A DNA stretch of 64,000 nt from a plasmid. The notes beneath the pieces were generated by a model. That model made no database searches, had not been told where the DNA came from, and was given only the letters and a program-made list of their open reading frames with translations. The stretch lies in sequence record NZ_CP118918.1. One strand, given 5' to 3'. Within the stretch, counting starts at the first letter, position 1; each line of letters begins with the position of its first letter. The position numbers were made by a program, and so were the translations under genes. Shown piece by piece: positions 11,501-63,657 of this stretch.

Positions 11501-11511
11501 TCCGCCAGCAT
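5599..11511 (-). CDS. traA: MobF-family conjugative relaxase/helicase (TraA/TrwC-like), 1970 aa
   Basis: N-terminal relaxase motif IHKLTAGSGYLYLVRQVAAHD...LGDYYSSKGETPGRWGGRGLAGL. RecD-like helicase P-loop LAPAGSGKTTATAALARSW. Long Ala-rich C-terminal extension. Single uninterrupted frame. Confidence 0.85.
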   Translation of the reverse strand: MLAESSLGFVVRNRCAGQVNAGIHKLTAGSGYLYLVRQVAAHDRTHGPESLGDYYSSKGETPGRWGGRGLAGLSAGSQNWTRTDAGERLWSVAEGSEVTEDQMKALFGLGVHPNASALTKQLIAQGARKNSALTATTLGRPFRVNAGETELQQRLAEAYRDHNLSVGAHWNAAIDETVRAQMRTDIATDMFEEQHRRAPLDERELTGFIARGTRDQTTSVAGYDMTFTPVKSVSALYALCPEPIAKQIEECHRKAVQDALDFLQDQAAYTRIGAQGIAQVDTEGFITAEFLHRDTRASDPGLHTHVAISNKVRARGTDGIPRWYALDGRPLYASTVAASELYNSRLEAYLGDELGMRFAARGDAREGKREVREVVGVSRELNELWSSRRAAIDAEYAVLAKKFQAAHGREPTTPESIAMFQQATLATRDAKHEPRSLAEQRAEWRTQAVGLLGSDEAVNAMIARSLAGRTTTPAEVTAGWINARAAQVIATVSAARSTWNRTHVLAEALRVVRVTGHAGIDGIAELITDAALTEPRSIRHASSPDTDLGEPAVLRRRDGTSVYRQAGTQTYTSPEILAAERQILAAATLRDGRTVPAADVEIELLAQAAHRRELNAGQAQLVREMACRGQRVMLALAPAGSGKTTATAALARSWEGAGGTVIGLSPSASAAQLLREEIDVEVGDTLDKFNWLTDNPDISPGDPARQWYDAIDENTLIIVDEAGKAGTLALASMIAVALARGASVRLVGDDKQLSSISAGGVLRDLAHEHGAITLSQVMRFASASEAQAGLALRDGDPSGIAFYLDAQRVHVGTQAAASDMAFQAWQSDIAEDKHSLLLAPTHELVSELNDRARLHRLTELGEHATGIEAVLMAGARASVGDLVFTKHNDRTLALGATDFVRNGYRWEVTEVDPDGSITVTHLESHAHLRLPAAYVRSHVTLGYARTIDATQGATARYRCHTVGSDQLTRQQVYTALTRGVHGNHIYFSTAEHDPHRVLSPKATHPDTAVDVLTRALARDAAQVSATSAARAATDPAARLAAATQMYAHAVGTAAESRLSPAQHAELDSHAEKLVPGLTTATAWPVLRQHLALIAAAGIHPLKRLDKVVASGGFDNAADPAAVIDWRLDPTGAHSGGAGPLPWLPAIPERLAADPQWHTYLAARAQRVTDLAAEVTATARQWSAATAPRWARPLVGTDLELAAELAVYRAATAVEDNDTRIAGAEQYPARTRAAQRGLEQRAAELIGADATTNRYDTLIDSINPHIRHDPYWPQLAHHLAAAARTGVNITQLVRTVAAERPLPDELPAAALWWRLCGTLTPAVLETANGGLRPDWLPDLHTVFGTELAETIAADPAFPALVSAIGNADPDQWTPRDLLHVAAEHLYDADAHLTHHLRPDEYARLLTYSIEVFTTADPYDHDIPLPDTAPLTPEEHEELAHLHPDIENTPPGRQHAHDDVLADPNNLAAALGLDDYDLTEPTAPDDQLPPPEHADDYFTPDTGIDFDSLSTVRPSPAAALAAHRADVHALRDRYAAADAQVRALAAHVTAGGGPHVLAATDELRRMRAAADADRPFLARVEAVLDQWHHAETTYAEALELIGHARTELDTLRADPDADPLDIASATQHLNFLTSYQLPPTSPAEQFHPAFDEATAARAAAAGGSEHIVTHADADALLRRCRADDDTLLARHRADRAALRDQLHRAELAAAQAFARAQRSTAEHITELLPRIDTELRVLDAAGQHAFQERLPISEHPDIDTDRLRRLTDAPFVLTAAHASDRAALLPMMKHLERAAHDAQRPLIWAAPATICDNADLSPIANTVIDAATLDLHDSAPGTIVVIDRAEHISPETIADLTETAATAHARIILLDTNTATWPPPPAAPLLKLLHTELRWSPVLTAATGRINHFDASPDSNAALTQAAGLHPDHHTPAITTALQRHRKAQQRNTTAHDLHTRMWNAAHRDEGFSRGG

Positions 11512-14435: not shown

Positions 14436-15977
14436 TCAGGTGGTGACGGTGGCGGGTTCGCCGGTCAGCGTTTCCACGACGAGTCCGACGAGATCGCGGG
14501 CGGCTGGTGGGGTGACGGCGTTGCCTGCCAGGCGGACTTGCTCTCGTCGGGTGCCGAGCATGCGGTAGTCGGTGGGGAAGTCCATCGCGGCGGTGATTTC
14601 GCGGGGCTCCAGCATCCGGAAGAACACGTCGTTGATGTCGATGTGCTGTGGCGGTGCGGGGGCGGGTCCGCTGGTGATCAGGCTGTGGCGCTCGACGGTG
14701 GTGACGGTGGGCAGGGCTTCGTTGGCAGGGGTGCTGCCGCCTTTGCCGTAGTAGCTCGTGATCAGGGGGCGGGGCTCGGTGGGGTTCCAGCGTCCGTGGA
14801 ACACGTCGCCGCGTGTGACGGGGGTGTAGACCAGGCCGTGGTGGTTGCCGGATGCGGTGACCGTCGAGAGTGCTTCGGTGGTGCAGCGGGCATCGCTGGA
14901 GCCGCCGCGGAGTTCGGCGATGAAGGGCGCGAAGGCGATGCCGTCGTTCTCGCGGGTGGTTCGGGTGGCGATGGGTTGATCGACGGCGACAGCTTCGTTG
15001 CGCCAGGTGCCTCCGGTCGGGACCAGCAGCGCGGTCTCGCTGCGCGTGGTCATGGTGCGTGTCGGCTGGTCGACCGGGGCGGCGTTCTTGCCGTCGCGTC
15101 CTTCGACGGGTACCAGCATGGGCTGCCAGTAGCGCTGGATTCCGGCGGCGATGCGGGCCATGGTCTTGTCGGCCAGGGGGCGGGTGCGCTCACCGATGCG
15201 TGTGCCGGTCAGTGACCAGTCGATGATGTCGGCGGCCGGGCGGTAGGTCGGCTCGATCACCTGGTTGCGGCACGCGACGTTGGGGCAGCGGTAGACGTAC
15301 TGGGCGCGGTACTTACCCCACGGTGCGCGGTCGGTGCGCTTGAAGCTCTGGACGGCGCGGACCGGTCCGCAGGCGGGGCACACCGCGTAGGGGGACACGA
15401 TCCGCTTGACGTCGGGGCGGGGATCGCCTGCGCGGGTGAAGATCGCATAGAACCGGTCTCTCGACTGGGGGGCGCCGCGACCGAGCAGTTGCGCATGCAT
15501 TGAGTTCAGGTAGACCATCTGGCCGACGTAGCCGATGGATTCCATTGCCATGCGCCACGCCTGGAAGGGCGGCCAGAACACCACGTCGACCACGTTCTCC
15601 ACGATCACGGCGCGGTACATGTGGTACTCGGAGAAGCGCACGACATCCCACATGGTGGCGCGGGAGCGCTCGGCGGCGGCCTCGGGGAGAATCTCGCCGA
15701 ACAGATCCGGTTGGGCGTCTTGACGTTTGCGGCCCTGGGCGATGCTGTGCTTGGTGCAGCTCGGGCTGGCCCACAGCAGATCAGTGGTGGGGAACAGACG
15801 CGGGTCAATCTGGGAGAGGTCGGCCTGAATGTGGTCGGTGTCAGGGTGATTGGCGCTGTGGGTTTCGATGGCCCTGTCCCAGTGGTTACTGGCGACCCTG
15901 GCCACGACGTTGTTGATCATCACAGCACCAGCCGTGGAGCCTCCAGCGCCGCAGTAGAGGTCGGTGATCGTCAGCAT
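14436..15977 (-). CDS. DNA (cytosine-5)-methyltransferase with unusual motif IV (PSCT instead of PCQ) and a Cys4 insertion
   Basis: Motif I DLYCGAGG, motif IV LWASPSCTKHSIAQG, motif VI VIVENVVDV, motif VIII QSRDRFYAIFTR, C-terminal GNAVTPPAARDL. Insertion CPACGP...CPNVAC. SD GAGAGGA 7 nt upstream of the ATG. Confidence 0.85.
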   Translation of the reverse strand: MLTITDLYCGAGGSTAGAVMINNVVARVASNHWDRAIETHSANHPDTDHIQADLSQIDPRLFPTTDLLWASPSCTKHSIAQGRKRQDAQPDLFGEILPEAAAERSRATMWDVVRFSEYHMYRAVIVENVVDVVFWPPFQAWRMAMESIGYVGQMVYLNSMHAQLLGRGAPQSRDRFYAIFTRAGDPRPDVKRIVSPYAVCPACGPVRAVQSFKRTDRAPWGKYRAQYVYRCPNVACRNQVIEPTYRPAADIIDWSLTGTRIGERTRPLADKTMARIAAGIQRYWQPMLVPVEGRDGKNAAPVDQPTRTMTTRSETALLVPTGGTWRNEAVAVDQPIATRTTRENDGIAFAPFIAELRGGSSDARCTTEALSTVTASGNHHGLVYTPVTRGDVFHGRWNPTEPRPLITSYYGKGGSTPANEALPTVTTVERHSLITSGPAPAPPQHIDINDVFFRMLEPREITAAMDFPTDYRMLGTRREQVRLAGNAVTPPAARDLVGLVVETLTGEPATVTT

Positions 15978-34650: not shown

Positions 34651-37600
34651 CTACTTGGAAGACCAGGCATCAATGACGAGTCTGCCGCTGGCAGTGAGCT
34701 CTTCGAGCCAGGCGAGGGCTTGATCTTCGTCGTCGTTACCCGATTGGGTGCGGTAGACATCAAGCAGGGCTCGGTTGACCCCGGGAACTAATCGGGCCCC
34801 GTCTCCGCACACTCGCAGGTGCCTCTGTTCTTCTTCGATCATGCGCCAGACTTCGCGGGCGTCCTTCCTGATGCGATCCTGAACGAAGGCGCAGTTGTCT
34901 TCGGGTGCAGCGAAGTATGTGGGCCGTAGATCAACTACCCCGTTGGATTCTGCTTCCTCAAGTTCCTCTCGGTGAAGGAAGTCGACGTCCGGGTGGTCGC
35001 AACCGAAGTAGCAGAGTAGCGGCGCGGCGTCTGCGCTGTGGGCCCGGTCCTGGATCACGCCACGAAACGGTGCCAGTCCGGTGCCAGCGCTGATGACGAT
35101 TGCCGGTTGATCATTCTCCAGACGGAAGTCATCTGAGCACGGCAGCACGCGGCCCAGCACCGTGTCTCCTTGTTGCAGTTGGCGCACATAGGTGGAGGCA
35201 GTTCCGCGATATGTTCCCTCGCCTGACAGGTGAGGGGCATCGACAGCGGCCACCATCAAGTCGATGTGGCCTGGCTGCGCGGCCGGTGACGACGACACGG
35301 AGTACCGCCGCGGAGCCAGTGCCGGCAGCATAGCGAGGAAGGTGTCAACGCCGAGCTCGACGGACCGATAGCTTTCGAGTAGATCCAGCAGCGACACTCG
35401 AGCGGTCGTGATTCTGGCAGCGAACTCGTCGGCGTCGTCGACGAGCTTCTGTAGCGCGGTGCGCTCGGGCGGGCATGAGCACCGCGCGATCATTGTCTCG
35501 ATCTGCTCGATCGTGGCTGGGCTCTGCAGTTCCACGTATCGACTGAAGACCTCGCCCAAGGTGATGGGTCGTTCGGTGGGGATGTGATCCGGGACCCGAC
35601 CGTGACGGTGGAGGATCACCAGCTCGGTGAGGTCGGTGCCGAAGCGGCGTTGCACTCGTGCGATCAGTTCGGCCGGGTTCTGTGGAAGCAGTGCAAGGTG
35701 ATCGGCGGTGCGATACGTCGTCCCTGCTGGTAGTTCGAGGCGAAGAAACATCTTCGATCGCCCCAGTGGGTGCGTGGTGTCGACCAGTTCATGGGCCGAG
35801 ACGACCGTCATCGGTTCGAGACCGTGCCTGCTCTGCAGGTCCTGGTCCAACGACCACACTGCTGACTCGATGGTGAGGCCGGCGTCGTGTTCATCCGGCG
35901 GCTCGGCGGTGATGCCGTCACGAGGCAGGATCGTCGCCCACAGGTCGGTGTTCCAGCGTTCGACTTCTCCGGTGAAGTCGCCGGCGACGTCTGCGGCGCC
36001 GCGGTCGATGAGCCGGTGCCCGCCGGCGGCTGATAAGCGTGCGTCGATCGTGGCGGGGACGTGTTGGTACGTGGCAGCCCAGTTGCGGTCACCGACTCCG
36101 AGGACTGCGTATCGCAGTCCGTCGAGGGAGCCAGGGGTCACGAATTCCAGCCAGGGCAGGAATTCATCGGCGTCGTCGGTGGGCTTGCCGTTGTAGGACG
36201 ATGCCACCACCAGTACCACCGAGTCCGAACGCAATTGCCCGACCGCATCGTTCAAGGAACCCAGCGTTGCGTTGTAGCCGGCTTGTGTGGCGCGGTCGGT
36301 GATATCCCGGGCCAGTCGTGCCGATGTGCCCAAATTGGACCCGTGCAGCACCGTGAGCGTGGTTCCCAGCTCGACTGCGTTGCCGGGCTGCGCCACCACA
36401 GTGCTGGCGTGGCGCCCGGTGTCGGCCGGCTGAACGCTGCGATCAGCGGGTAGGCGGCGGGCCAGCTTCAGCGTCAGGCCGCCCGGTTTGATCGTCAAGG
36501 CTTCGGTGATCTTGAGTTGATAGTTGGAGTAGTCGTTGAGGCGGTACCGGTGAATGATCATGGCCAGGACAAGGGTTGCTTCGTGGAGCGCGAATTGCCG
36601 TCCAATACAGGCGCGTTCACCGTTGCCGAAGGGCTTGTAGAGGTGCATGGGTCGTGTGCTGACGTTTTCGGTGTTGAAGCGCTCGGGATCGAATGCTTCA
36701 ACGCTGTCGCCCCATTCGGGTGAACGATGCAGAGGCGGGGTGAGGATCGTTATAACGTCGCCGCGTTTGACTGCGTAGCGTCCGCCGATGACAGTGTCTT
36801 CGAAGGGTTCGACAGCGTAGCCGGGAGCTGTTGGCCACAGCCGAAGAGTTTCATTGAGGATCTGCTGGACGTAGGTCAACCGTCCGATGTCGGTGTAGGA
36901 CGGATCGATGTCGTCCGAGGTTCCCCACAAGGTATCGACTTCAGCTTGGGCGCGGGCCAGCACCGTTGGGTTCTTGGCGAGGTAGTAGAGAGCAAAAGAC
37001 ATGGCACCGCTGGTGGTTTCGTGTCCGGCGACCAGGAAGGTGATGACTTGGTTGCGGACGTTCTCCGGGTCCAGGCGTTGCCCGGTGTCTTTGTCAGCAG
37101 TGTTGAGCATGCGGCCGAGCAGGTCGTCGGTGTGGTTGTCGCCAGATTCGAGGCGCTGGCGCACAACGTCGTCCACCACGTTGTGCATCAAAGCGATGTC
37201 GCGCTCGTACTGCTCGCCGCTTGTGCGTTTGAACGCGTTCATGATCGGCAGGGTCGCCGCCAGACCTTGCGCGTGGTGCAGCGCTCGGCTCATGGCTTCG
37301 ACAAAGGGATGAGGGGTCTCTCGCTGGAACGATTCCAGGTCGAAACCGAATCCGCACAGGCCGATGGTGTCGAAGGTCAACCGCGTCATGTCCTCCGGTA
37401 TCTCTACTACTGAGGCAGCGGCTGCGTAACGGTCCCACCGATCGAGGAGCTTTCGCGCGACATCGACCATTGTGGTGTGGTACTGGCTCATAGCCTCGAG
37501 CGAGAACGCGGGGAGCAGAATGTTGTGGGCCTTGCGCCAGTTGGGTTCATCGTTGAAAGCGGTGAACAGGCCGTCGCCGCCGATGTCGCGCAGCTGAACT

Positions 37601-37845
37601 AGCTCGGTGTAGACGCTCTTACAGAACCTGGCGGTGTCCGAGAGTTCGGCCACCAGGTCTCCGTCCGAGACGACGATCGTGTTGGTGTTCGCGATCCTCA
37701 GCCGCATGATCGGTCCCAGTTCCTTGGCCTGGGCCATCATCCACTGCATGGGGTTCTCGCGCGGGACGCTGAAGGTGTGCCCAACCAGCGGTAGTCCTGG
37801 TGGCTCGGGGATAGAGCCGAAGTGAGCAACAGGTGAGGTGGTCAA
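34651..37845 (-). CDS. self-sufficient cytochrome P450 fused to an NADPH-P450 reductase (CYP102/P450-BM3-like), 1064 aa
   Basis: Heme loop [25 protein letters not shown] is almost identical to BM3 [25 protein letters not shown]. C-terminal flavodoxin-like and FAD/NADPH reductase domains. Length matches BM3. Confidence 0.9.
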   Translation of the reverse strand: [1064 protein letters not shown]

Positions 37846-53090: not shown

Positions 53091-53599
53091 GGCTGATCAT
53101 CGCCTGGACTTGTTCGGCGACGGTGAGCTCGAGGATCCTGGTGGGTCATTTGGTGGCGCCGGGCAGTATGTTCGCGTTTTTGGTTTGTGCAGGGTGCGGA
53201 GCGGCCGGATCGGGAGTTGTTGGACGCGTAGCCTATTATCCCAGCTCACACCAACCCCACCACGAAGGCACGCCGATTATTCAGCGGCCTCCCAGATGCC
53301 GCGATGCTGACACTCCTCTGGCGCGCAGTTGTTGCATCAAACGCAATTCTTCCCATTTCTGACAGCAGATCGAACGGTGAATGCCACACGTCTGGCAGTG
53401 CTGCGTTCCGATCAGCACACGTCCGGCGCCACCCCGTAGTGGATGCCCATTTACGCAGTACAGAGGGGGCGGCGGCTCCTCCCAGCCATGCCGCGTTCGA
53501 CGCAACTCCATCCTCGCCATGCCCTAAGTTCCGGGATCGCTGGACCGAAGAGACCAAACAGCCCTGTAGATACAGTTGTCTACAGTTTATTCTGGGATC

Positions 53600-53836
53600 A
53601 TGTCTACACCTACAACAACGATCCGCGTACCGGTTACCACTCGTGATCGCCTCAATGCACAAGCCCGCGACCGCGGCATCTCCGTCGTCGCACTCCTCGA
53701 CGAATGGTCCCACCGCGCCGAAAGGGACGCCGCCTTCGCCGAGGAACGCGCCGCCACCCGCGCAGAAGCCGCCAACCCAGCCGTCATCGAGGAGGACCGC
53801 GACTGGGAACAGGCCGACGCCGATGGAATCGACTAA
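53600..53836 (+). CDS. RHH antitoxin (MazE/CopG-like)
   Basis: [36 protein letters not shown]. 14-nt overlap with the downstream toxin. Confidence 0.6.
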
Positions 53837-54182
53837 TCCCCGCCGGGGCGAACTGTGGCTGGTCGCCTTCGGCGCCGGCCGCCCCGGCGAACCCGCCAAA
53901 CACCGGCCCGCCGTCATCGTGTCGGCTGACGAACTCCTCACCGGCGATCCAGATCCCACCGAACTCGTCGTGGTGATACCGGTGTCGAGTTCGCGCACAC
54001 CGACAAGCCTCCGGCCACCGATCACCCCCGATGAAGGCGTCGACACCAACAGCGTCGCAGTCTGCCGGGCAGTCCGAGGCATCGCCCGAGGACGACTACT
54101 GCGCCACCTCGGAACGCTCAACAGACCCACGATGAGCCACATCGAGAAGTCCGTGGCCCTCATCCTCGGACTCGACCGATGA
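53823..54182 (+). CDS. MazF/PemK-family toxin endoribonuclease
   Basis: [29 protein letters not shown]...VVIPVSSS...[46 protein letters not shown]. Confidence 0.75.
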
Positions 54183-56597
54183 CCCGGCCGCAAGCCCCGA
54201 TGAGTTCGCGCCGAGCGCAGGTCCAGTCTCGGCGATGCCCCAGTGCCATCCTGGTAACGCTTCAAGCTGATCGCGCCGACGAGGGTGCAGCTTTCGGCGG
54301 CGCGAAGGCCGACGCATCTGGCGCACCCAGTCGCTCACATTAATGCCGTCCGGCGAGTGGTAATCAGCGGGTGGGTCGGCGTGGCCGTGCTCGGCCGCGA
54401 ATGCCGCTAGCGCAGCGAAAGAGTCATCCCACGTTGATGCCTGGCGGAGATCCCACGACCAGCCTGGCACCGCTTCGAGCTGTTTGCGTCGCTGCGGATC
54501 CATTCTGTCCCGGCGCCCGGGACGGCGCAGCGTGACCACCCAACTGTTGAGCTTGAACAACCTGGGATCCCCTGTGTCACGCGGCGGATAGGCGTGCCCG
54601 TGCTCGACCGCGAACGCCGTCAGAGCGGCTAGGTTCTCTTCCCACTGTGCCTCAGCGGGGTTCCACGCCCAGCCGGGCAGCGATTCCAGCCGCGCGCGGC
54701 GCTCATCGGACAACTTCGCTCGTCGGCGACGCTGATCGGAAACCCAGTGCCCCAGAGCAAGTCCGGACTCGGCATAGTAGGCCTGCGGCGGCCGGGCATG
54801 TCCGTGCTGGGCGGCATAGACGGCCAAGTCCCCGAAATTGATGTCCCATTGGTCATCAAGTGCCTTCCACGACCACCCGGGTAGCCCGGCAAGGCGCCTC
54901 GCGCGTGCAGCGGGCAGCTTTCCGTTGTTGTGAAGTCTGCGTTGCATCCCCACCCAATTGCCGACCGCGAAATCGCCAACCCGGTACGCCGCGGGTGGGC
55001 GGGTGTGTCCGTGCTCGGCCCCATACTGGACTAACGCAGCGAAGTTGGCCTCCCACTGCTGATCTGTGAGCGGATCCCACGTCCAACCCGGCAGCGACTC
55101 GAACAGTTCTACGCGGCGCGCTGGCATACGCCCCAATTTGTAGGCGGCGCGCTGATTTTGGACCCATATGCCCAGCGCATCCCCAGCGGGCGTGCGGTAC
55201 TTATAGTCCGGGTACGGGTGGCCATGGGCCTTGATGAAGTCCGTGAGCGCGTTGAATCGCTGGTTCCAAATGGCTTCATGCTGGTTCCATGCCCATCCAG
55301 GCAGGCTCTCGAGAAGTTCGACGCGGTGGGCAAGAAGACGGCCCTGAGAATACCGGGTGCGCTGATGCTGAATCCAGGTGCCGAGATCGGCGCCAGACGG
55401 GGCCAGGTGCCGGCGGGGCACGTTGGAGTGACCGTGTTCGGCGGCGAATGCCCGAGCGGCCTGGTAATGCTGGTCCCACTGCCGAGTCAGCGAGTCGACG
55501 GTGTGAACGCTGAAAGCGCTAAAAAACTGTGCGGCAAGCTTCTTCGGCAATTTCGCGGGGAGGTGGATATCTAGGATATCGGTCTCGATGTCGGTGACAT
55601 CATCGGCGCTAGGACCGTCAGCCAGGCGCTGCCGGACCAGTCCGAGATCGCGGTTCAGTGTCGGATCGTGGCTCTGCAGCGCAGCAAGGACCTGGCGCAC
55701 GCGTTTGAATTCGCTTATGTCGATGACCGTTTCGGCGTCCTGGCTGTCATCGACTGTGACGGCCAGGACGATGAGGGCGGGCCGGTCATGATTGGGGTTC
55801 TTGCGGATAGCTCTGCCGACCGCTTGGGCCACATCAACCTCCGACGATCGCGGCTCGGCGAAGAACACGGCATCCAGAGCCGGGATATTGATGCCCTCGG
55901 TCAAACAGCGGGCGTTGGTGACCATGTTCCACCGCGCAGGGTCGTGAATAGCCAACGTCTGCGTGGCGGCCAGCCGATCACTGAGCTTGGTGGAGCCGTC
56001 GATATGGATGACCTTCGCGGCGCGACCGTCACGGACAAGGCCCCTGGCCGTCAACAGCGCGTGAGTGCGGCGAAAAGTGGCTGCAAACTCTGAACTTGCG
56101 GCAATCGTATTGTGAAACGCCAGCACGCTGGACAACCCGTAATCAGCGGCAGCCTGGGTCAGCGCGATCGAGGAGGCGACATGATCGGCGCGGGCTGCAC
56201 CATCCTCGCCGGCCGCCAAACTGATCATCCGCAGATCCTTGAGCGCTGACGACACCGCGCTATCAGCCACCGCAATGACCGCGACCTTGAACGGTGACAG
56301 AATCCCTTGCTCGATAGCGGCCCGGGTGGGCAAGGTGAAGACCTGCCGTCCGTACAACTCAGGGTCATCCATGGAGGCCACCGAACGCCGTCGCGGCTTG
56401 CCCCCGCGAGTGCGCGGACCACTGTGCACCTTCGGTGTCGCGGTGAAGAACAGCCGATGCGCCGCGGGGATCAGCCTGTCATCAAGCGCGGCGGCGAACG
56501 GCTTGCCCTTGAGCCCCGCAGTCCGGTGCGCCTCGTCGCATTTACTGATCGGACTCACGGAACCGGGCCGCGGATCGTGCGGGAATGCGTCGCGCAC
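54096..56597 (-). pseudogene. SF2 (DEAD/DEAH-like) helicase lacking the N-terminal motif I/II region, followed by about six 'helicase-associated' (HA) domain repeats
   Basis: Starts at motif III FFTATPK, then helicase-C CLTEGINIPALDAVFFAEPRSSEVDVAQAVGRAIRK. Repeated W...L..F...HGH...PP...Y....G..LG.WV..QR.....L...R...LE.LPGW.W units. No Walker A upstream. Confidence 0.7.
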
Positions 56598-56876
56598 ATG
56601 TAAGCCACACGACGCGGGTACGGCGTAACTACCCGATTAGATCGGACCGCTGGCTTGCTAGGGTATTGACCGACATGGTGCCAGTCGAGCCGATCTCCCA
56701 CCGGCTCCGTGACCTGGCCGGCAGCGACTAACGTCTACCTGTGGGTCAACGGAATCCACCCCAAAGTTCGACTGGAGCAGAAAACGCCGTGTTTGCTGGT
56801 GATGACGGGAGCGCGTGCCGACCACCGCAAGGGGCTGGTCGAGCTCGCCTGCGCATCCGAAAAGTTGATCTTCGAT

Positions 56877-57443
56877 ATGACACCAAGTGACTGTCGGAGC
56901 CGGCCGGTACCCTCAACCGCGGCCAGAAAGGGTCCGCATCACGGCAGGAGTTTGGCATTGGGTACACGGACGGTGTTCTATTCGTTCCACTACGACCGTG
57001 ACGTTCACCGCGTCCAGCTGGTGAGGAATATCGGCGCCGTAGACGGAAGCCCCGCTCTCGGATCGCAAGAGTGGGAAACCGTCCGGCGCAACAGCCGGCA
57101 GGCGGTAGTCAGCTGGATCGACAAGCAGATGGCGTACAAGCGAGCTGTGGTCGTCCTTATCGGACAGCAGACTGCGAACCGCCCCTGGGTCAAGTACGAG
57201 ATCGAGAAGGCATGGAACAACAAGAAGCCCCTCGTCGGCGTTCACATCCACGGGCTGTCATCTATGGGGCTCACCGACACCAAGGGGGCTAACCCGTTCG
57301 ACGCAGTCGCTGGCGTCACGAGCGTGCCGGTCTTCGACCCCACCAAGCATGACTATCTAGGCCGGATCGACACCAAGGCCACCTACGCCTACCTCGCTGC
57401 CAACTTGCCTAGCTGGGTGGACCAGGCGAGAGCACGCGCGTAG
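56877..57443 (+). CDS. TIR-like domain protein of the DUF1863/ThsB type (start uncertain; ORF opens at 56709)
   Basis: RTVFYSFHYDRDVHRVQLVRNIGAV...SWIDKQMAYKRAVVVLIGQQTANRPWVKYEIEKAWNNKKPLVGVHIHGL matches the ThsB/MTH538 TIR-like pattern (FxSFhYxxD...V.vLIG..T..r.WV.yEI..A....K.lvgV.i). Confidence 0.65.
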   Translation: MTPSDCRSRPVPSTAARKGPHHGRSLALGTRTVFYSFHYDRDVHRVQLVRNIGAVDGSPALGSQEWETVRRNSRQAVVSWIDKQMAYKRAVVVLIGQQTANRPWVKYEIEKAWNNKKPLVGVHIHGLSSMGLTDTKGANPFDAVAGVTSVPVFDPTKHDYLGRIDTKATYAYLAANLPSWVDQARARA

Positions 57444-58465
57444 TGCCTCCAGCGGAATGCCCGTTCTGCGAGATCGTCGACCGCAGCGATCCTGACGTGC
57501 GCGAGGTATACCGCGACGCGAATGTGGTCGCCTTCTTCCCGACCGACCCCGCAGTACTAGGCCACACACTGGTGATCCCGCGTCGCCACGTTCCGGATAT
57601 CTGGAGCTTGCGCACCGAGGAGGCCGCGCAGCTCTCCGCGGCCGTCCTACGACTCGCTGAAGCGATTCGGGCGGCGGTCGTCCCCGAGGGCTTCAACATC
57701 ATCCAGTCCAACGGAGCGGCCGCTACACAGACGGTTTCCCACCTACACGTCCATCTCGTCCCTAGGAACGATGCGGACGCGATGGGGCCTATCTGGCCGC
57801 AAGAGACGGACTATTCCGAGGACCGCAAGGACGATGTGCTCAACCGGGTCAAATCGGCGGTGTCTTCTCTCAAACCCGTCGAGCCGGAGGTGTCACCGGA
57901 GGACCGACGCAAGCACCTCGACTACATCCAAGCTGTGGTGACTCGACAGTCGGCGGCCTCAGCGTCCGCGAAGGGGTGGCTGCTTCCTGTTGTCACTGCA
58001 CTTTTCGGGTTCGCACTCACCCAGCACGTGTGGCTGCTCGCCCTGCTGGGAATGTTCTTGATTGCCGTGTTCGCCTACATCGACGCGAATTACCTCCGCA
58101 GCGAGAAGGCTTACCGCGCTCTTTACAACGCGGTAAGCCGCTCCGAACGCATGGTTCCGCGATTCACGCTCGACCCAACGGACGCCCACGAGCCGCAATG
58201 CGGCGATGCGCCTGCCGCAGCGAAATGGAAGGTGTTGCGCGACAAGTACCTCCCCCCTCGGGAGGTGTGGACGTCGTGGTCGATCGCCCCTTTTTACAGC
58301 GCAATGCTGTTACTCGGTGTCGGAGTGGCCGTCACCGCAGCGTTCACTGCCGATAAGGCTGCGATACCTTTACCGCACGGACCCACGATGACCACGACCG
58401 TGGTGAGCACAGTGCCGGCGTCCCCCGCACCTGTACCCGCTCAACCGAAGTCGCCGCCGCCGTGA
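57443..58465 (+). CDS. HIT (histidine-triad) domain fused to a C-terminal transmembrane domain (2-3 TM)
   Basis: CPFCEI..., GHTLVIPRRH, HLHVHLVPR (intact HxHxHxx). TM segments GWLLPVVTALFGFALTQHVWLLALLGMFLIAVFAYI and WSIAPFYSAMLLLGVGVAVTAAF. GTG start overlaps the TAG of the TIR gene (TAGTG). Confidence 0.7.
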   Translation: MPPAECPFCEIVDRSDPDVREVYRDANVVAFFPTDPAVLGHTLVIPRRHVPDIWSLRTEEAAQLSAAVLRLAEAIRAAVVPEGFNIIQSNGAAATQTVSHLHVHLVPRNDADAMGPIWPQETDYSEDRKDDVLNRVKSAVSSLKPVEPEVSPEDRRKHLDYIQAVVTRQSAASASAKGWLLPVVTALFGFALTQHVWLLALLGMFLIAVFAYIDANYLRSEKAYRALYNAVSRSERMVPRFTLDPTDAHEPQCGDAPAAAKWKVLRDKYLPPREVWTSWSIAPFYSAMLLLGVGVAVTAAFTADKAAIPLPHGPTMTTTVVSTVPASPAPVPAQPKSPPP

Positions 58466-58692: not shown

Positions 58693-61299
58693 TCATCCAG
58701 CAGCATCTTCTTCGGCGACGCGCTCCAGGACGTCCTCGATCGTCTCGTGCGGCTGCATGACGGTGTCCCAGAGCCCTATCGGGCGCTCTTCGCGCGCAAC
58801 GTTGGGATTGTCGGCGTATTCGAGGCTGGAGTCCTCGAAGGCTTTGAACTGGTAGATGGCGGCGTTCATGTGAATCGGATTGAACACCCCGATCTGGTTG
58901 AGCAGCTTGAAGTCCTCGACGCTCAGGCCGGTGACCCGCTCGAACAACAGGCCGTCCACGCCGAGGATGATGTCCTTGAGTGCCTGCTCCCGGACCTGGG
59001 TGACGTACATGAACACCGGGATCTTGGCGAGCAGCTTCTGAAGCTTCTCGCGGATCTCCTTGCGGCGCTTGGCGGTCTCGGACTGCTCCCGTTTCTGTTC
59101 ACGGTTGAGCTTGCCGTCGTCGCTTTCCCGTTTGGCCTTCTTAAGCAGCTTCGAGGAGGTGACGACCTGCTCCGCGGTCTGCGCCAGGTTGCGGAAATCC
59201 TCGATCCGGCCGAGGGCCTCCAGCAGATCGGGGTGGTCGAGCAGCTTGGTGAGGGTCTGCTCGTTGATGTTGACCAGCAGGGGCGAGTTCCACCGCTGCG
59301 CGAGCGCGGTCGCGCCGATGCCGGTGGTGGCCCAGTTCAGCACGTCGGCGGCGTCGAGTTCGGTCATCATGCCGCCAGCGAAGGCGAAGATTGGCAGATA
59401 GTTCAGCAGCTGGCCGATAGCTTCCTGCGGTGTCGTATCCCCGAGGGCGCCCAACCGCATGCCGTACTCGCCGACCAGGGTCAGGGCCCGGTTCGGATCG
59501 AACTCGAAGACGTACACCGGGTCCTTGAGCACCTCCACGGTGCCGTCCGGGAGGCGCTTTGACCACGGCGACTGCACCCGGAACGCGGCCTGGAAATAGG
59601 TTTCCGGGGACCTAAGCGAGCGCAGCATGAGGATCGCGCCCCATTCGCGCACCGTCACCCCGGTCATCAGCTTGCCGCAAGTCAGGGTGATCGACCCAGT
59701 GCCGGTCTTGGCAGCACGGTTGATGGCGTCGGTCACAGGGGGCTTGGCCTCCTTCCCCATTCCGACCCCGCTGCCGGCGGCCACCACGACCTCGAAAGTA
59801 GAGAAATACGGGTGCTTCTGCAGGGCGTCGCGCATGGCGAAGCACGCGGCCACGTCGTTGAGATACCAGACCGAATGCGTGATGGCGCGTGCAAACACCG
59901 GCGCCTGGTAGGGGAACGGCGGCTTCTGCCCGCCGACGATCTGCAGCTTCATCTGCTCGGGCAGCGTCCCGCGCAGCATCTCGAGGAACTCGAACACCCG
60001 GTTGGGATCCTCGAACAAATAGGCCCCAGGAGCGGTGGAGGTGGATCTCGGTACGACCTTCTTGGCCCTGAAGTATTCGTTGAGGGAGAAGCCGTCGAAT
60101 TCCCCGTCGGCAGCCCACCTTTCGGCGTCCCCGCCGATGTCGTAGCTGAAGATCTGCATCCCCGGCAGGTCGATGTAGGGATTGGATTCGGCAGCAATGT
60201 CCCAGCGTTCCTTCTCGCGCTGCTCGTCGACGTAGGTCCAGTTGAAGATCTGATCCTCGGTGAACTCACCGTTGGTGATCGCGCGAAACGGGGTTCCCGA
60301 CAGGTACAGGTAGTGGTGGCTAGACAGACCCAGATCGTCCTCAGTGACCGAGTCGTCGGGCTCCTCGGCCTCGGCGATCTCGGCGTCGGTCGGGTCGTAC
60401 AGCTCGCGAGCCGAATCGCGCCAGGCTCCAAAGTGATATTCGTCAAGGACGATGACATCCCAGTCGATGAGGTGGATTACCTCGTTGTGCTGCTTGATGT
60501 TCCCGTCCGCGGTTCTGCCGCGCATGTCCTGGAACGAGGCGAACCAGACCACCGTCTCGGGGGCGTCGGCCGCGCCGTCGCGGTCCTCCGGCGAGGACTC
60601 CCGGTCCACGAATCGCCAGCCCTCGAAATCGACGTGGGTGAGCAGGTCCTCTTTCCACGCGGTCTGGACCACAGGTTTGTAAGTGAGCACCAGGATGCGC
60701 TTCCAACCCATTTCACGGGCGAGTTGGTAGGTGGTGAAGGTCTTACCGAAGCGCATCTTGGCATTCCACAGGAACCGCGGGGCGTGGGCGTCTTCGGCGT
60801 GTGAGCGGAAGTAACCGGCGGTCTGGGCAACGGCCTCCTCCTGCTCGGGCCGCATTCCGAAGTCCGCGGTGCGGGTGCCGTCATAGGGCTTGCCGTTGCG
60901 CACTGCGACGATGGCGGCCTGGACCTCTTCGGGGGTTGCCTCGAACCATTCGGCATCCTTGCGGATCCCTTTAGCGACCAGGGCCCGGTGGACGTCGTGG
61001 TCACGGAAGGCGCTGCCATCGTTGCGCCGGGCCTCTATGTCCAGCAGCAGCGTCACCCCTTCAAGGTGCGGGAAAGCGGTGCCAAGCTGCTGCTTGATGC
61101 GCTGTAGCACTTCGGCTTTCGTTGTATCGCCGACTTTGATCAGACCCGTTCCGCTGGAGTGGGTGCCGCCGACCGTGCGTTCCCACCGCTGGGCATCCTT
61201 ACCGGGCAGCGTGTAGGCGTAGATCCGGCGGGCGACACTGCCCGAGCCGACGGTCTCGACCTCTTCCGGCGGCAGCGTCGTCTCCTCGGCGGCGGTCAC
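58693..61299 (-). CDS. T5orf172/GIY-YIG-like nuclease domain fused to an SF2 (ResIII/DEAD-like) helicase, 868 aa
   Basis: N-terminal RIYAYTLPGK...GTGLIKVGDTTKAEVLQRIKQ...EWFE (T5orf172). Helicase motif I MRFGKTFTTYQ, motif II VIVLDEYHFGA, motif III YLSGTPFR, helicase-C TLTCGKLMTGVTV...QAAFRVQSP. Confidence 0.75.
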   Translation of the reverse strand: MTAAEETTLPPEEVETVGSGSVARRIYAYTLPGKDAQRWERTVGGTHSSGTGLIKVGDTTKAEVLQRIKQQLGTAFPHLEGVTLLLDIEARRNDGSAFRDHDVHRALVAKGIRKDAEWFEATPEEVQAAIVAVRNGKPYDGTRTADFGMRPEQEEAVAQTAGYFRSHAEDAHAPRFLWNAKMRFGKTFTTYQLAREMGWKRILVLTYKPVVQTAWKEDLLTHVDFEGWRFVDRESSPEDRDGAADAPETVVWFASFQDMRGRTADGNIKQHNEVIHLIDWDVIVLDEYHFGAWRDSARELYDPTDAEIAEAEEPDDSVTEDDLGLSSHHYLYLSGTPFRAITNGEFTEDQIFNWTYVDEQREKERWDIAAESNPYIDLPGMQIFSYDIGGDAERWAADGEFDGFSLNEYFRAKKVVPRSTSTAPGAYLFEDPNRVFEFLEMLRGTLPEQMKLQIVGGQKPPFPYQAPVFARAITHSVWYLNDVAACFAMRDALQKHPYFSTFEVVVAAGSGVGMGKEAKPPVTDAINRAAKTGTGSITLTCGKLMTGVTVREWGAILMLRSLRSPETYFQAAFRVQSPWSKRLPDGTVEVLKDPVYVFEFDPNRALTLVGEYGMRLGALGDTTPQEAIGQLLNYLPIFAFAGGMMTELDAADVLNWATTGIGATALAQRWNSPLLVNINEQTLTKLLDHPDLLEALGRIEDFRNLAQTAEQVVTSSKLLKKAKRESDDGKLNREQKREQSETAKRRKEIREKLQKLLAKIPVFMYVTQVREQALKDIILGVDGLLFERVTGLSVEDFKLLNQIGVFNPIHMNAAIYQFKAFEDSSLEYADNPNVAREERPIGLWDTVMQPHETIEDVLERVAEEDAAG

Positions 61300-62906
61300 T
61301 CCTCGTCCTCGGAGGTGCCTTCGTCAGCTATTCGATACTTCACGCCGCCAGGGCGGTGGGAAGCGGGGATCGGGGAGTCCAGGGAGAGAATCGGCTCCCG
61401 CGGGTGGATGGTTCGGTCGATGTAGTCGCGCTCGTCGTCGGTGAGCCCGAAATTGTTGTACAGATCCTCGTCGGTCCACCGCTGCTTCATATCAAGCATC
61501 GGGACGAACTTGAATCTGTCCGGCGTGACGTCCTGGGTAACTTTCCGCTGCAGCACGAGGAAACGCGCGAACTTGCCCGCCAGGTAGTAGGCGAAGTTCG
61601 CCGTCTCGTCGGCGGTGTCGAACATCCCGGCGATCAAGTATGTCTGGGTGCACGCCGACCCGGGAGCGACTGCAATCGGCTCGCCCAGAACGTAGGAGAC
61701 ATCACGGCCGTGGCCGTCGCCCGCTTTGGGGATCAATACTTTCCAGCGGTCGATCCATTGGTGGTTACGCTCAATCTGATCGGGCCTGCTGTATCCGACC
61801 CGGTTGCTGTAGATCAGTGGGATACCGCCGGGGAAAGGCTCGGGAACGCTTCCCGCATAGTTCGAGAACATATTCAACCCGAAAGGCTTTCGGACCGAGC
61901 ACACCTCGGCGACGGTTTTGCTCGTCTTCGCCCGAACCTTGTCGACGATGGACATGGCGCGGTTGTCCCGGACGAGAACACCATCACCTGCACGAAGATC
62001 ACGCACCAGCGTGGAGAGGATCACGCCATCTATCCGCGTGGAGAATTCGCAGTCGCCGTCGTGCTCGCGGTCCCAGAGAAAGTAGGAAACACCGCCTTTG
62101 ATCTCGACGCCGGGAAAGCAGTCAAACAACTTGGGGTTGTCGACCAACTTGGCGAGGTGACGATCGGCAATCATCTTGTCGCGGAACTCATCGAGCCCCT
62201 TGCCGCCGGCGAACCAGCGCGACGGTGTGATCATCAGCAGGTAGCGGGGGTTCATCGAGATGGCCATCTCAACGAATCGGTGGTAAATCGTCGAGGCGGT
62301 TGCGCCGTAGCCTTCGGTGGAAAGTTGGTATGGGGGGTTGGTGACGATGATGTCGAACTTCATGTCCTTCATTTCTTTCGTCGGGTACGCGTCGTGGATG
62401 AACGAATACGCATGGTTCTCGCGAGCTTCGCGCTCAAGGCTTTCCGGCGCACCGCACACGGTGCAGCGGCCTCGGATGAACCTGTGCGGAGCCGCGACGA
62501 AAGGCAAATTCCCGTCCGGGTCGTCGAAACGAACCACCGACAGCTCGCTAGAGGCGTCGCGAGCGCAGTACACGCTGCGCCGCGAAATCATCCCGGTCAT
62601 CTGGGTGATCGACGTACCGAAAAGCATGTCGCGGTAGATGTGCTTGCGACGCTTGTCGAAGTCGGGTTCCCACTCCTCGAGCCCGGCGAGAAGGCGGGAG
62701 GCGATCTCGCGGAGGAACACCCCGGACTTACAGCACGGGTCGAGCCAGCGGTAATTGGGCTCGCTCCACACGTGGGCCGGAAGGATGTCGAGCATCGCAC
62801 GCGCCACCCTGGGTGGGGTGGGAACCTCGTCGTTGGACAGTTGCGCCAGGCAGTCGAGAATGTCTGGCACATGGTTGCCGAATCGCCGGTGCAGGACCTC
62901 TGTCAT
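61296..62906 (-). CDS. Eco57I-family (gamma-class) N6-adenine DNA methyltransferase with C-terminal target-recognition region
   Basis: Motif I VPTPPRVARAMLDIL...WLDPCCKSGVFL. Motif IV FDIIVTNPPYQ. 536 aa. ATGA overlaps with both neighbouring genes. Confidence 0.8.
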   Translation of the reverse strand: MTEVLHRRFGNHVPDILDCLAQLSNDEVPTPPRVARAMLDILPAHVWSEPNYRWLDPCCKSGVFLREIASRLLAGLEEWEPDFDKRRKHIYRDMLFGTSITQMTGMISRRSVYCARDASSELSVVRFDDPDGNLPFVAAPHRFIRGRCTVCGAPESLEREARENHAYSFIHDAYPTKEMKDMKFDIIVTNPPYQLSTEGYGATASTIYHRFVEMAISMNPRYLLMITPSRWFAGGKGLDEFRDKMIADRHLAKLVDNPKLFDCFPGVEIKGGVSYFLWDREHDGDCEFSTRIDGVILSTLVRDLRAGDGVLVRDNRAMSIVDKVRAKTSKTVAEVCSVRKPFGLNMFSNYAGSVPEPFPGGIPLIYSNRVGYSRPDQIERNHQWIDRWKVLIPKAGDGHGRDVSYVLGEPIAVAPGSACTQTYLIAGMFDTADETANFAYYLAGKFARFLVLQRKVTQDVTPDRFKFVPMLDMKQRWTDEDLYNNFGLTDDERDYIDRTIHPREPILSLDSPIPASHRPGGVKYRIADEGTSEDEE

Positions 62907-63595
62907 CGCCTCTTCCCCTTAGCCGCCAACGGCTTCGGATTGGCAGCCAGTTGCGCGTAGTGCACCGGAATCTCGTCACGTTGCGGCTCATCTGGCAGCA
63001 CATCGAACAGATCGAGCTGCGAGTCCAGCGCCGGCTCCTCCAGGGTTGACCACTTCCGCAAGAAGGTGCCGGCCGCGCCCGGCTGGTAGGAGACCAGTTC
63101 GATCACCTGGGCATCGGCGAGGGTGTCGGCGCGCACGATGTTGGTGGTGAGGATTGCGTCGACGGCCGACCAGAATCCGGCGGTTCGGGATGCCGGGTCG
63201 CCAATGTGAGTGGCGATGACGGAGCGCATATGCCGGCGGGAGTCGGTCACGTTTTCGGGGTCGATATCGATGCCATAGATCGAGGCCAGACAGCGAAGGA
63301 TCCGGTGCTCGTACTCCTCGCCGCGATACCGGGCAGGAGCCACCGCTGCCAGTTTGCGGCGCAAGATCTCGACCAGGAAGTTGCCGTGGCCTGCGGCCGG
63401 CTCGAGGAAGGTTTTGTCGAGGTTGTCGGGAGCTTCCTCGCTGGGGAACATGTCCGGTACGAGGTCAAGCATCGCGGTGACCTCACGGTGGTGGGTGTAG
63501 ACCTCGGCGAGATCCCGCACGCGGTTGCGGTTCTTGATCTGCTCCGGGCCGGCTTGAAAAAGCGTAGGGGCAACACCCTCGCTGGTCTCCGTCAC
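62903..63595 (-). CDS. MTase-like protein: SAM-binding motif I intact but motif IV degenerate (TNIVR instead of NPPY)
   Basis: TFLEPAAGHGNFLVEIL and IYGIDIDPENV (motifs I-III). FDAILTTNIVRADTL sits where FD.I.TNPPY is expected. 230 aa. First gene of the three-gene operon. Confidence 0.5.
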   Translation of the reverse strand: MTETSEGVAPTLFQAGPEQIKNRNRVRDLAEVYTHHREVTAMLDLVPDMFPSEEAPDNLDKTFLEPAAGHGNFLVEILRRKLAAVAPARYRGEEYEHRILRCLASIYGIDIDPENVTDSRRHMRSVIATHIGDPASRTAGFWSAVDAILTTNIVRADTLADAQVIELVSYQPGAAGTFLRKWSTLEEPALDSQLDLFDVLPDEPQRDEIPVHYAQLAANPKPLAAKGKRR

Positions 63596-63657
63596 CGCTG
63601 CCTCACCTCCGTACTGGTCCAGCTTACAAACAAGCAGGTCAAACAGGTCCGATAGTT

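Follow-up and report, generated by a model that had tools for sequence, protein, structure and literature searches.

A stretch of 64,000 nucleotides of plasmid DNA (NZ_CP118918.1; "the window" means this whole stretch) carries three overlapping open reading frames (ORFs) on the minus strand, and the question was which restriction-modification (R-M) system, known or new, they encode. A reading made from the sequence alone, referred to below as the sequence-only reading, had described them as a split, nuclease-swapped relative of the Type ISP restriction enzymes that matched no named system and carried an extra, degenerate methyltransferase (MTase). The genes are here called M1, M2, and R.

62903..63595, minus strand: M1, 230 aa, GTG start; homologue of M1.DrdVI
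61296..62906, minus strand: M2, 536 aa, ATG start; homologue of M2.DrdVI
58693..61299, minus strand: R, 868 aa, GTG start; homologue of DrdVI
63606..63610, minus strand: Shine-Dalgarno-like GGAGG, 10 nt 5' of the M1 GTG, read from the sequence

The ORF list agreed with the positions that the sequence-only reading had assigned to the three minus-strand genes, all of which are intact, and the strings it had quoted were all found in the translations (FLEPAAGHGNFL, TNIVR, WLDPCCKSGVFL, TNPPYQ, RIYAYT, LIKVGDTTK, EWFE, GKT, DEYH, and SGTP). Both junctions had been described as ATGA overlaps. This was correct for M1/M2 (62906-62903), whereas the M2/R junction is GTGA, in which the GTG start of R overlaps the TGA stop of M2 (61299-61296). 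A promoter and terminator scan gave no signal better than that of shuffled sequence.

A tblastn search of plasmids located the R gene also on pDrdVI, a plasmid of Deinococcus wulumuqiensis NEB 479, with 43.7% identity across 95% of the length. In pDrdVI, a 212-aa 'DNA methyltransferase' and a 539-aa Eco57I-domain methylase precede the R gene in the same order as in the window, and the identities over the full length were 33%, 41%, and approximately 44% for M1, M2, and R, respectively. REBASE and New England Biolabs (NEB) list the DrdVI system as Type IIG, consisting of a 'split methylase' and a fused GIY-YIG endonuclease/translocase. M1.DrdVI and M2.DrdVI are named there, and DrdVI is described as 'a fused translocase and REase' (restriction endonuclease) with a GIY-YIG domain (PMC4996451). 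According to NEB papers, cloned M1-2.DrdVI produced N6-methyladenine (m6A) in GCAGCC. M1-M2.MaeIV of Methanococcus aeolicus gave m6A at GCACY and was placed in a 'split methylase/RM' family similar to DrdVI (PMC10113651). Since the same three genes occur in the same order with these full-length identities, the window operon is, by homology, an intact member of the named and catalogued DrdVI family and a real defence operon, not a new kind. The statement that it matches no named system therefore did not hold, and a match to an already described system, which the sequence-only reading itself had listed as evidence against it, was found in DrdVI.

The likeness to DrdVI covers the number and order of the genes, their tight or overlapping junctions, and their domain content. 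As in DrdVI, the small first gene encodes only the motif-I-bearing N-terminal part of an N6-adenine MTase, M2 is an Eco57I-family MTase with NPPY and a C-terminal target-recognition domain (TRD), R is a GIY-YIG endonuclease fused to a translocase, and M1>M2>R is kept as a unit. The window operon differs from DrdVI in its specificity domain, which is just 30% identical, in its actinobacterial host, and in its location on a recombinase-bearing cassette. In addition, its R has an insertion of 14-16 residues in the GIY-to-YIG loop that is absent from DrdVI R. By description, MaeIV belongs to the same named family, and its M1 and M2 were cloned together for methylation (PMC10113651); unlike the window operon, it is archaeal. 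Literature searches found no paper joining T5orf172, Eco57I, and helicase, or 'split methylase' and Type IIG.

Co-conservation of the three genes was investigated using the M1 alignment as bait against one genome per species. This yielded 552 confirmed loci, and 80 of them were kept, spanning Actinomycetota, Pseudomonadota, Bacteroidota, Verrucomicrobiota, Cyanobacteriota, and Bacillota as well as one archaeon. Gene order was judged at the 56 kept loci with at least 4.3 kb downstream of M1.

46/56 loci: M1>M2>R, with nuclease and helicase
2/56 loci: M1>M2>helicase, nuclease match absent
5/56 loci: M1, then a helicase-first, fused-type arrangement
1/56 loci: M1>M2 only
2/56 loci: M1 alone

The conserved neighbourhood for which the sequence-only reading had proposed a check was thus observed in many phyla. 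Scored homologues numbered approximately 7,500 or more for each gene, and the ratios of nonsynonymous to synonymous substitution rates (dN/dS) against the Mycolicibacterium vanbaalenii copy were 0.22 (M1), 0.11 (M2), and 0.09 (R). Purifying selection acts on all three genes, and, because of the number of homologues and the low dN/dS, the three-gene observation is far beyond chance. M1 as a decaying pseudogene or a chance ORF was ruled out by the 552 loci, the kept gene order, and its dN/dS value.

R consists of a nuclease, a superfamily 2 (SF2) motor, and a C-terminal domain.

60895..61236, minus strand: R nuclease domain, aa 22-135; GIY-YIG superfamily, T5orf172 type
59260..60858, minus strand: R SF2 helicase/translocase core, aa 148-680
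60739-60747, minus strand: R Walker A GKT; G185, K186, and T187 invariant
60433-60444, minus strand: R DEYH; D286, E287, and H289 invariant, Y288 in at least 90%
58696..59202, minus strand: R C-terminal domain, aa 700-868; K/E-rich helix, then a conserved helical domain

R matched Pfam T5orf172 at 21.6 bits (cut-off 20) and scored 22.0 bits against ResIII, below the cut-off of 22.5. When 30 diverse R homologues were searched, ResIII was matched by 26, T5orf172 by 18 (best E 8e-11), and MUG113 by 7; we take T5orf172 and MUG113 to be members of the GIY-YIG clan. Y27, K55, G57, and T59 (a YIG-like KxGxT) and E117 (in 'EW') were invariant in a 30-sequence alignment (A5), and Y29 and R67 were nearly invariant there and invariant in an alignment of closer homologues (A7). 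The best fold matches of the nuclease model were SLX1 nucleases, which are GIY-YIG enzymes. As judged by these residues, the catalytic residues of the R nuclease are intact. In the motor, SGTP (S334-P337), motif V GKLxTG (G542-G547), and motif VI QAAFRVQ (Q570-Q576; Q570...R574) were invariant or nearly so. The domain string of T5orf172, SF2 helicase, and helicase-C proposed earlier was therefore upheld for T5orf172, the motor, and motifs V and VI, but Pfam Helicase_C gave no match to R. The C-terminal domain reaches a conservation of 0.7-0.8 at aa 741-800, with invariant K752, F763-Y765, R770, and E771. Its equivalent sits between helicase and MTase in fused homologues, just upstream of the M2-like part, and we therefore regard it as a putative coupler or docking domain. 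In PADLOC, R matched PDLC03626 (E 3.5e-25), and NCBIfam had no model for R. PDB sequence searches with R, M1, M2, the family profiles, and a fused Enterococcus protein returned no useful relatives, only weak motif-I matches for M1 and M2 and a spurious NAP1 coiled-coil match for R.

M2 was assigned in the sequence-only reading to the Eco57I family of gamma-class N6-adenine MTases with a TRD, and this assignment was confirmed by the Pfam Eco57I match (96.6 bits, E 2.3e-27) and by the variable C-terminal segment. In PADLOC, M2 matched MTase_II PDLC03375 (E 6e-47) and PDLC03626 (E 1e-39).

62367..62867, minus strand: M2 N-half, aa 14-180; M1 paralogue with non-canonical motifs I and II
62328..62339, minus strand: M2 motif IV NPPY, aa 190-193; catalytic loop
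61587..62066, minus strand: M2 TRD, approximately aa 281-440; most variable segment

The motif order is that of the gamma class (X, I, ..., IV, then TRD). N190, P191, P192, and Q194 were invariant and Y193 nearly so, and conservation was 0.38-0.56 in the TRD versus 0.6-0.8 elsewhere. Compared with DrdVI M2, the TRD was 30% identical, whereas the two segments of the MTase core (aa 1-110 and aa 181-280) were 52-53% identical; compared with the vanbaalenii M2 (86% overall), the TRD was 79% and these core segments 92-93% identical. By these comparisons, M2 carries the only specificity domain and the only catalytic NPPY of the system, and its recognition site probably differs from the GCAGCC of DrdVI, since the specificity domains share just 30% identity.

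The N-half of M2 is related to M1 (hhalign probability 98.1%; M1 15-122 aligned to M2 2-111). Its motif I is DPCCKSG (family DPxxKSG), where K60 replaces the first glycine, and its motif II is FGTSITQ (family FGxxIT[EQ]), with no acidic residue directly after Gly. When M2 was aligned with PglX, KSG stood for the GSG of PglX and 'aite' for its DIDD. Between motifs II and III lies an insert with invariant H141, C148, and C151 (CxxC; residues 141-151 at approximately 62454-62486) and a consensus C114 nearby, which may be a zinc-binding element in the degenerate N-half; the aligned region of the fused Enterococcus form is without the insert.

M1 is the truncated N-half of a gamma-class N6-adenine MTase. 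It has motifs X, I, II, and III but no motif IV; its AlphaFold model shows a beta-hairpin and a tail after motif III.

63377..63409, minus strand: M1 motif I FLEPAAGHGNF, aa 63-73; canonical glycine loop for binding S-adenosylmethionine (SAM)
63119..63145, minus strand: M1 motif III region TNIVRADTL, aa 151-159; N152 invariant, D/N157 and L159 nearly so

The motif I pattern F-L-E-P-A-x-G-x-G-x-F was invariant (alignment A3), and the motifs were strictly canonical for the gamma class in 37/37 aligned sequences (X, GEV[FY]T; I, FLEPAxGxGxF; II, YG[IV][DE]; III, xN[ILV][IV]xG[DN]xL). In profile comparison, M1 aligned motif for motif with MmeI and Type I HsdM, and the best structural match of its model was the LlaBIII MTase domain. 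TNIVR had been reported to stand where NPPY is expected. In the model, it forms strand beta-3 at the position of motif III, and unsplit homologues show an NI(V/T)VGD element with FDVIIGNPPYQ 13-110 residues further on. The strand order and the unsplit homologues rule out TNIVR as a degenerate NPPY; it is motif III, and M1 ends before motif IV. Hence, M1 is not just an extra paralogue that has degenerated: it is a paralogue of the M2 N-half, but its cofactor motifs are canonical. The suggested role of a degenerate paralogue in specificity or regulation was probably a wrong emphasis, because an M1-type half is used in the unsplit relatives; a role in specificity is unlikely, since M1 has no TRD-like part. 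Pfam gave no match to M1, PADLOC gave just weak matches to motif-I regions of various methylases, and the NCBIfam matches of M1 and M2 were below threshold. On its motifs, the NCBI name of M1, 'type III restriction endonuclease subunit M', is a misnomer.

Fused and unsplit relatives bear on how the three proteins belong together. R and M2 matched a single PADLOC 'REase_MTase_IIG' profile, PDLC03626, R at 148-626 and M2 at 990-1356, so that each looks like one part of what in other genomes is a single-chain protein. In Enterococcus plasmids, a small M1 gene is followed by one 1445-aa protein, which begins with a GIY-YIG-like N-terminus (KVYGYT...GYVKIGDTT...DEWF) and continues with a DEAH helicase, a counterpart of the R C-terminal domain, an M2 N-half, NPPY, and a TRD. 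The motif I of its M2 part is degenerated further (ADLYVKSG). Judged by its domain order, this protein combines R and M2 in the arrangement of Type ISP enzymes; its nuclease is of the GIY-YIG type, and M1 remains a separate protein. On a metagenomic contig (P0309/L084), an M1-M2 fusion (830 aa) precedes R. The occurrence of split, R-M2-fused, and M1-M2-fused arrangements argues that M1, M2, and R work as one complex. The PDLC03626 matches, the Enterococcus fusion, and the co-conservation of the genes supported the split, nuclease-swapped, Type ISP-like, ATP-dependent architecture of the sequence-only reading.

The helicase-first variants are four actinobacterial loci (L035, L042, L052, and L061) and the Enterococcus plasmid locus (L003), which adjoins optrA on resistance plasmids and has all but M1 in the 1445-aa chain. 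M1 is followed at the helicase-first loci by a protein of approximately 850-1120 aa, a DEAH helicase is present in all, and a GIY-YIG-like N-terminus was read in L003, L042, and L061. L042, L052, and L061 have a separate protein of approximately 350 aa in third place. In L052 and L061, it starts at FDVVIGNPPYQ, and the break in the methylase falls exactly between motifs III and IV.

An exhaustive profile search gave 233 M1 clusters at E<=1e-30, almost all of them stand-alone proteins of 200-250 aa. Three longer clusters (P0463, P0471, and P0496) are unsplit methylases, in which canonical motifs and the M1-specific 'RRKL' mark an M1-type N-half that leads through FDVIIGNPPYQ into an M2-type C-half with a TRD; M2's own N-half is absent from all three. 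No R gene was found near P0463 or P0471; the contig of P0496, at just 2.5 kb, is too short for a judgement. Because an M2-type C-half directly follows the M1-type N-half in these methylases, M1 plus the M2 C-half is, at the level of sequence, the evolutionary equivalent of one normal methylase.

The operon was also compared with other known systems. Type ISP enzymes (LlaGI, LlaBIII) and the window operon have in common a nuclease and the set of SF2 ATPase, gamma-class N6-adenine MTase, and one TRD, and the N-to-C order of Type ISP enzymes recurs in the fused relatives. In contrast, Type ISP enzymes are single polypeptides with an N-terminal Mrr-type PD-(D/E)XK nuclease and without an M1 subunit, whereas the window operon has three ORFs, M1 among them, and its R nuclease is of the T5orf172/GIY-YIG type. 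PDB searches with R or the fused protein gave no sequence-level match to LlaBIII. Relatives that have helicases and GIY-YIG nucleases were pointed out by the authors of the Type ISP work (PMC3553950). Type III systems (EcoP15I Mod/Res) resemble the window-type system in their separate Mod and Res genes and their ResIII-type ATPase, and also in methylating one strand of asymmetric sites and in communicating between distant sites, both of which are predicted for the window-type system. However, Type III Mod is beta-class with a central TRD, while M2 is gamma-class Eco57I with a C-terminal TRD, and the Res nuclease is a C-terminal PD-(D/E)XK, while that of R is an N-terminal GIY-YIG. Type III membership, which the NCBI name of M1 suggested, was ruled out by motif order and nuclease type. 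Classic Type IIG/IIL enzymes (MmeI, Eco57I, BpuSI) are single chains without ATPase, whereas the window operon has a separate R with an SF2 ATPase; REBASE nonetheless labels DrdVI Type IIG. Type IIG-like systems of MTase-TRD, translocases, and GIY-YIG nucleases were described by Blow et al. 2016 (PMC4752239). One of these, OspHL35III, follows a logic like that of the window operon, in that separate polypeptides provide a TRD-bearing m6A MTase, a translocase, and a GIY-YIG nuclease (PMC4752239). Its nuclease and translocase are separate, its MTase is MmeI-like, and no M1/M2 split was described (PMC4752239), whereas in the window R unites nuclease and motor and the MTase consists of two chains. 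BREX and MADS were ruled out, as just motif-I regions gave weak matches; those to PglX were partial (E 3e-4 to 3e-3), and the operon holds no other BREX genes (PglZ, BrxC, BrxL, or similar) beside the PglX-like regions.

From these results, the operon probably encodes a functional three-subunit, ATP-dependent R-M system of the DrdVI family, with a two-chain M1/M2 methylase and motor-driven distant cleavage. M1 is most likely the SAM-binding chain of this methylase, because M1 is canonical, the M2 N-half is not, and the unsplit relatives use an M1-type half. M1 and M2 would assemble into one two-chain N6-adenine methylase, to which M1 would give the cofactor-binding half and the M2 C-half both catalysis and sequence recognition; the degenerate M2 N-half and the R C-terminal domain would tie this methylase to the motor. 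The methylase would mark one strand of a short asymmetric site. M1/M2 would recognise the site, and at an unmodified site the complex would switch on R, which would move along the DNA using ATP while its single-active-site GIY-YIG nuclease nicks the DNA away from the site. Where such complexes converge, double-strand breaks would result, as with Type ISP enzymes.

GCAGCC, the DrdVI motif, has no adenine on the complementary strand, so the DrdVI family would methylate one strand only. Systems that mark one strand, such as Type III and Type ISP, need a two-site or orientation rule so that host DNA is spared just after replication (PMC12707154; PMC3553950). One-strand marking, the motor, the N-terminal single-site nuclease, and the Type ISP order of the fusions together make translocation with distant cleavage the most likely mode, and we infer that cleavage occurs by long-range translocation.

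Several points weigh against this reading. The family is filed under Type IIG by REBASE, and classic Type IIG members cut at a fixed short distance from the site. The literature search found no cleavage biochemistry for any DrdVI-family enzyme. M2 has its own motif X (EVPTPP), its N-half contains the invariant residues K60, G62, T101, and H171, and this N-half is covalently placed to complete the M2 fold; M2 may bind SAM itself, with M1 as an accessory. Moreover, the published methylase clones always carried M1 and M2 together (PMC10113651 for MaeIV).

A more specific form of the proposal, which we put forward only tentatively, is that the methylase is split between motifs III and IV, that M1 holds the sole SAM pocket and provides it in trans, and that the M2 N-half has been re-used as a coupler to R. 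If so, methylation and the licensing of restriction would both depend on M1 docking, and the family would offer a natural two-chain N6-adenine DNA methylase with a built-in pseudo-half, mechanistically undescribed for any R-M system. Whether the methylase is truly two-chain, with M1 as the cofactor half, is the most interesting point of the locus.

Among the alternatives, the one that survives best takes M2 as a self-sufficient methylase and M1 as a SAM-binding, non-catalytic accessory pseudo-methylase, either a structural partner, as METTL14 is for METTL3, or a sensor of SAM that licenses R or holds it back. The sequence-only reading came near to this view. Motif X, a motif-I-like loop, NPPY, and the TRD are indeed present in one M2 chain, the N-half residues named above are invariant across phyla, M1 is a paralogue of that N-half, and the extra hairpin and tail of M1 after motif III could form a docking surface. 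On the other hand, motif I of M2 is without its first glycine and motif II without the acidic residue directly after Gly, and in the fused variant motif I has decayed further, to ADLYVKSG, whereas M1 is canonical in every lineage. The unsplit relatives dispense with the M2 N-half and keep the M1-type half, and NEB treats the M1/M2 pair as one split methylase. We consider an accessory M1 possible, though doubtful, and keep it under consideration because the M2 N-half is highly conserved and the published clones carried both genes.

A second alternative concerns the motor, whose ATPase might serve as a Type III-like switch for one-dimensional sliding, or R might cut near the site like classic Type IIG/IIL enzymes. 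The helicases match Pfam ResIII, a family named after the Type III Res subunits, the REBASE label is Type IIG, and translocation is only a prediction. Yet the fusions are ordered as N-terminal nuclease, motor, MTase, and TRD, not motor-first with a C-terminal PD-(D/E)XK as in Type III Res. To our knowledge, classic Type IIG enzymes have no ATPase, and NEB terms DrdVI a translocase fused to a REase. Sliding or near-site cutting is therefore unlikely, somewhat more so than an accessory M1.

It is highly improbable that T5orf172 is only a DNA-binding module acting by BREX-like blocking without cutting, or that this copy is an inert passenger of the cassette: although some databases (UniRef names) call T5orf172 'DNA-binding', its Pfam score is marginal here, and M1 and M2 give weak PglX-type matches, the GIY-YIG Tyr, Arg, and Glu are invariant or nearly so, SLX1 nucleases are the best fold matches of the model, other BREX components are absent, and the three ORFs are intact with dN/dS of 0.09-0.22.

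With the DrdVI-family system as the preferred reading, the proper annotation is a DrdVI-family (Type IIG-like/ISP-like) R-M system; neither 'hypothetical' nor 'Type III subunit M' should be used, and the operon should not be called a new type of defence. With thousands of homologues per protein in bacteria and some archaea, the family is very widespread. It is a reasonable target for mechanistic work on two questions, namely how an SF2 motor and a GIY-YIG nuclease with one active site are coupled and how a methylase can work when divided between a cofactor-binding and a catalytic chain.

The window is a mycobacterial region like that of conjugative plasmids, with a TrwC relaxase, P450s, and other functions, and its DNA is similar only to Mycolicibacterium vanbaalenii JOB5 plasmids. 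R is 92.5% identical to the copy on the vanbaalenii plasmid. The shared DNA runs from the end of the window (a DUF6262-like gene) through M1, M2, R, a HIT/transmembrane gene, and a ThsB-type TIR gene, and it breaks off at approximately 56523, immediately past the K-C-D-E-A-H-R codons and 25 codons into the ORF of a 5'-truncated helicase. Two tyrosine recombinase genes precede the DUF6262-like gene in the vanbaalenii plasmid, where the two flanks of the cassette rejoin to an intact VVFD|EAHR DEAH box. The interrupted helicases downstream in the two replicons are unrelated beyond this motif. Since the shared DNA stops at the DEAH codons, the flanks rejoin in vanbaalenii, and the helicases are unrelated, the R-M operon is, as read from these boundaries, cargo of a cassette of approximately 11.6 kb that has entered two different helicase genes at their DEAH-box codons, as would be expected of an integrative element with DEAH-box coding sequence as its target.

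The cassette contains the two tyrosine recombinases, DUF6262, M1, M2, R, HIT-TM (transmembrane), and ThsB-TIR. It ends at the codons GAC|GAG GCG CAC (D|EAH); the ends in the vanbaalenii locus (L001) are at approximately 1104 and approximately 12717, and the left end for the window lies beyond 64000. The synonymous divergence (dS) between the two cassettes was lowest in the HIT gene (0.10) and higher in R (0.48), M1 (0.63), and M2 (0.87). With such uneven values, the cassette is a mosaic, in which recombination has probably exchanged all or part of the R-M module.

The genes next to the operon are the following.

56709-57443, plus strand: ThsB-type TIR gene; Pfam ThsB_TIR E 7e-25, PADLOC ThsB E 2e-51, PDC-M50B
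57443-58465, plus strand: HIT-domain gene; C-terminal part matches PADLOC PDC-M50A, HIT part matches ThsC
54096-56597, minus strand: 5'-truncated SF2 helicase gene; Helicase_C plus six HA (helicase-associated) repeats
approximately 53841-54167 in ORF 53304-54182, plus strand: toxin domain of the PemK/MazF type, C-terminal in a long mechanical ORF; Pfam E 8e-16

The TIR and HIT genes overlap, and the pair is convergent with the R-M operon; transmembrane helices of the HIT gene are suggested by sequence reading only. This pair is a defence module, either Thoeris-like or a candidate PDC-M50. The window thus carries at least two defence modules, the R-M operon and the ThsB-TIR/HIT pair, both on the recombinase cassette. 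The first 25 codons of the truncated helicase come from the inserted cassette, and the protein resembles the helicase part of the PADLOC Type IIG and Type I fused REase-MTase profiles. The PemK/MazF-like gene is probably only about 110 codons long.

Further genes of the wider context lie at 5599-11511 (minus strand), 2664-3872 (plus strand), 14436-15977 (minus strand), and 34651-37845 (minus strand). By its gene content, the window looks like part of a large mycobacterial conjugative plasmid or integrative and conjugative element. Encoded in this wider context are a TrwC-type relaxase/helicase of 1970 aa, a DUF1173 protein, and a protein with a C5 cytosine DNA methylase domain, as well as a P450-reductase fusion of the P450 BM3 type and further lipid and oxidation genes.

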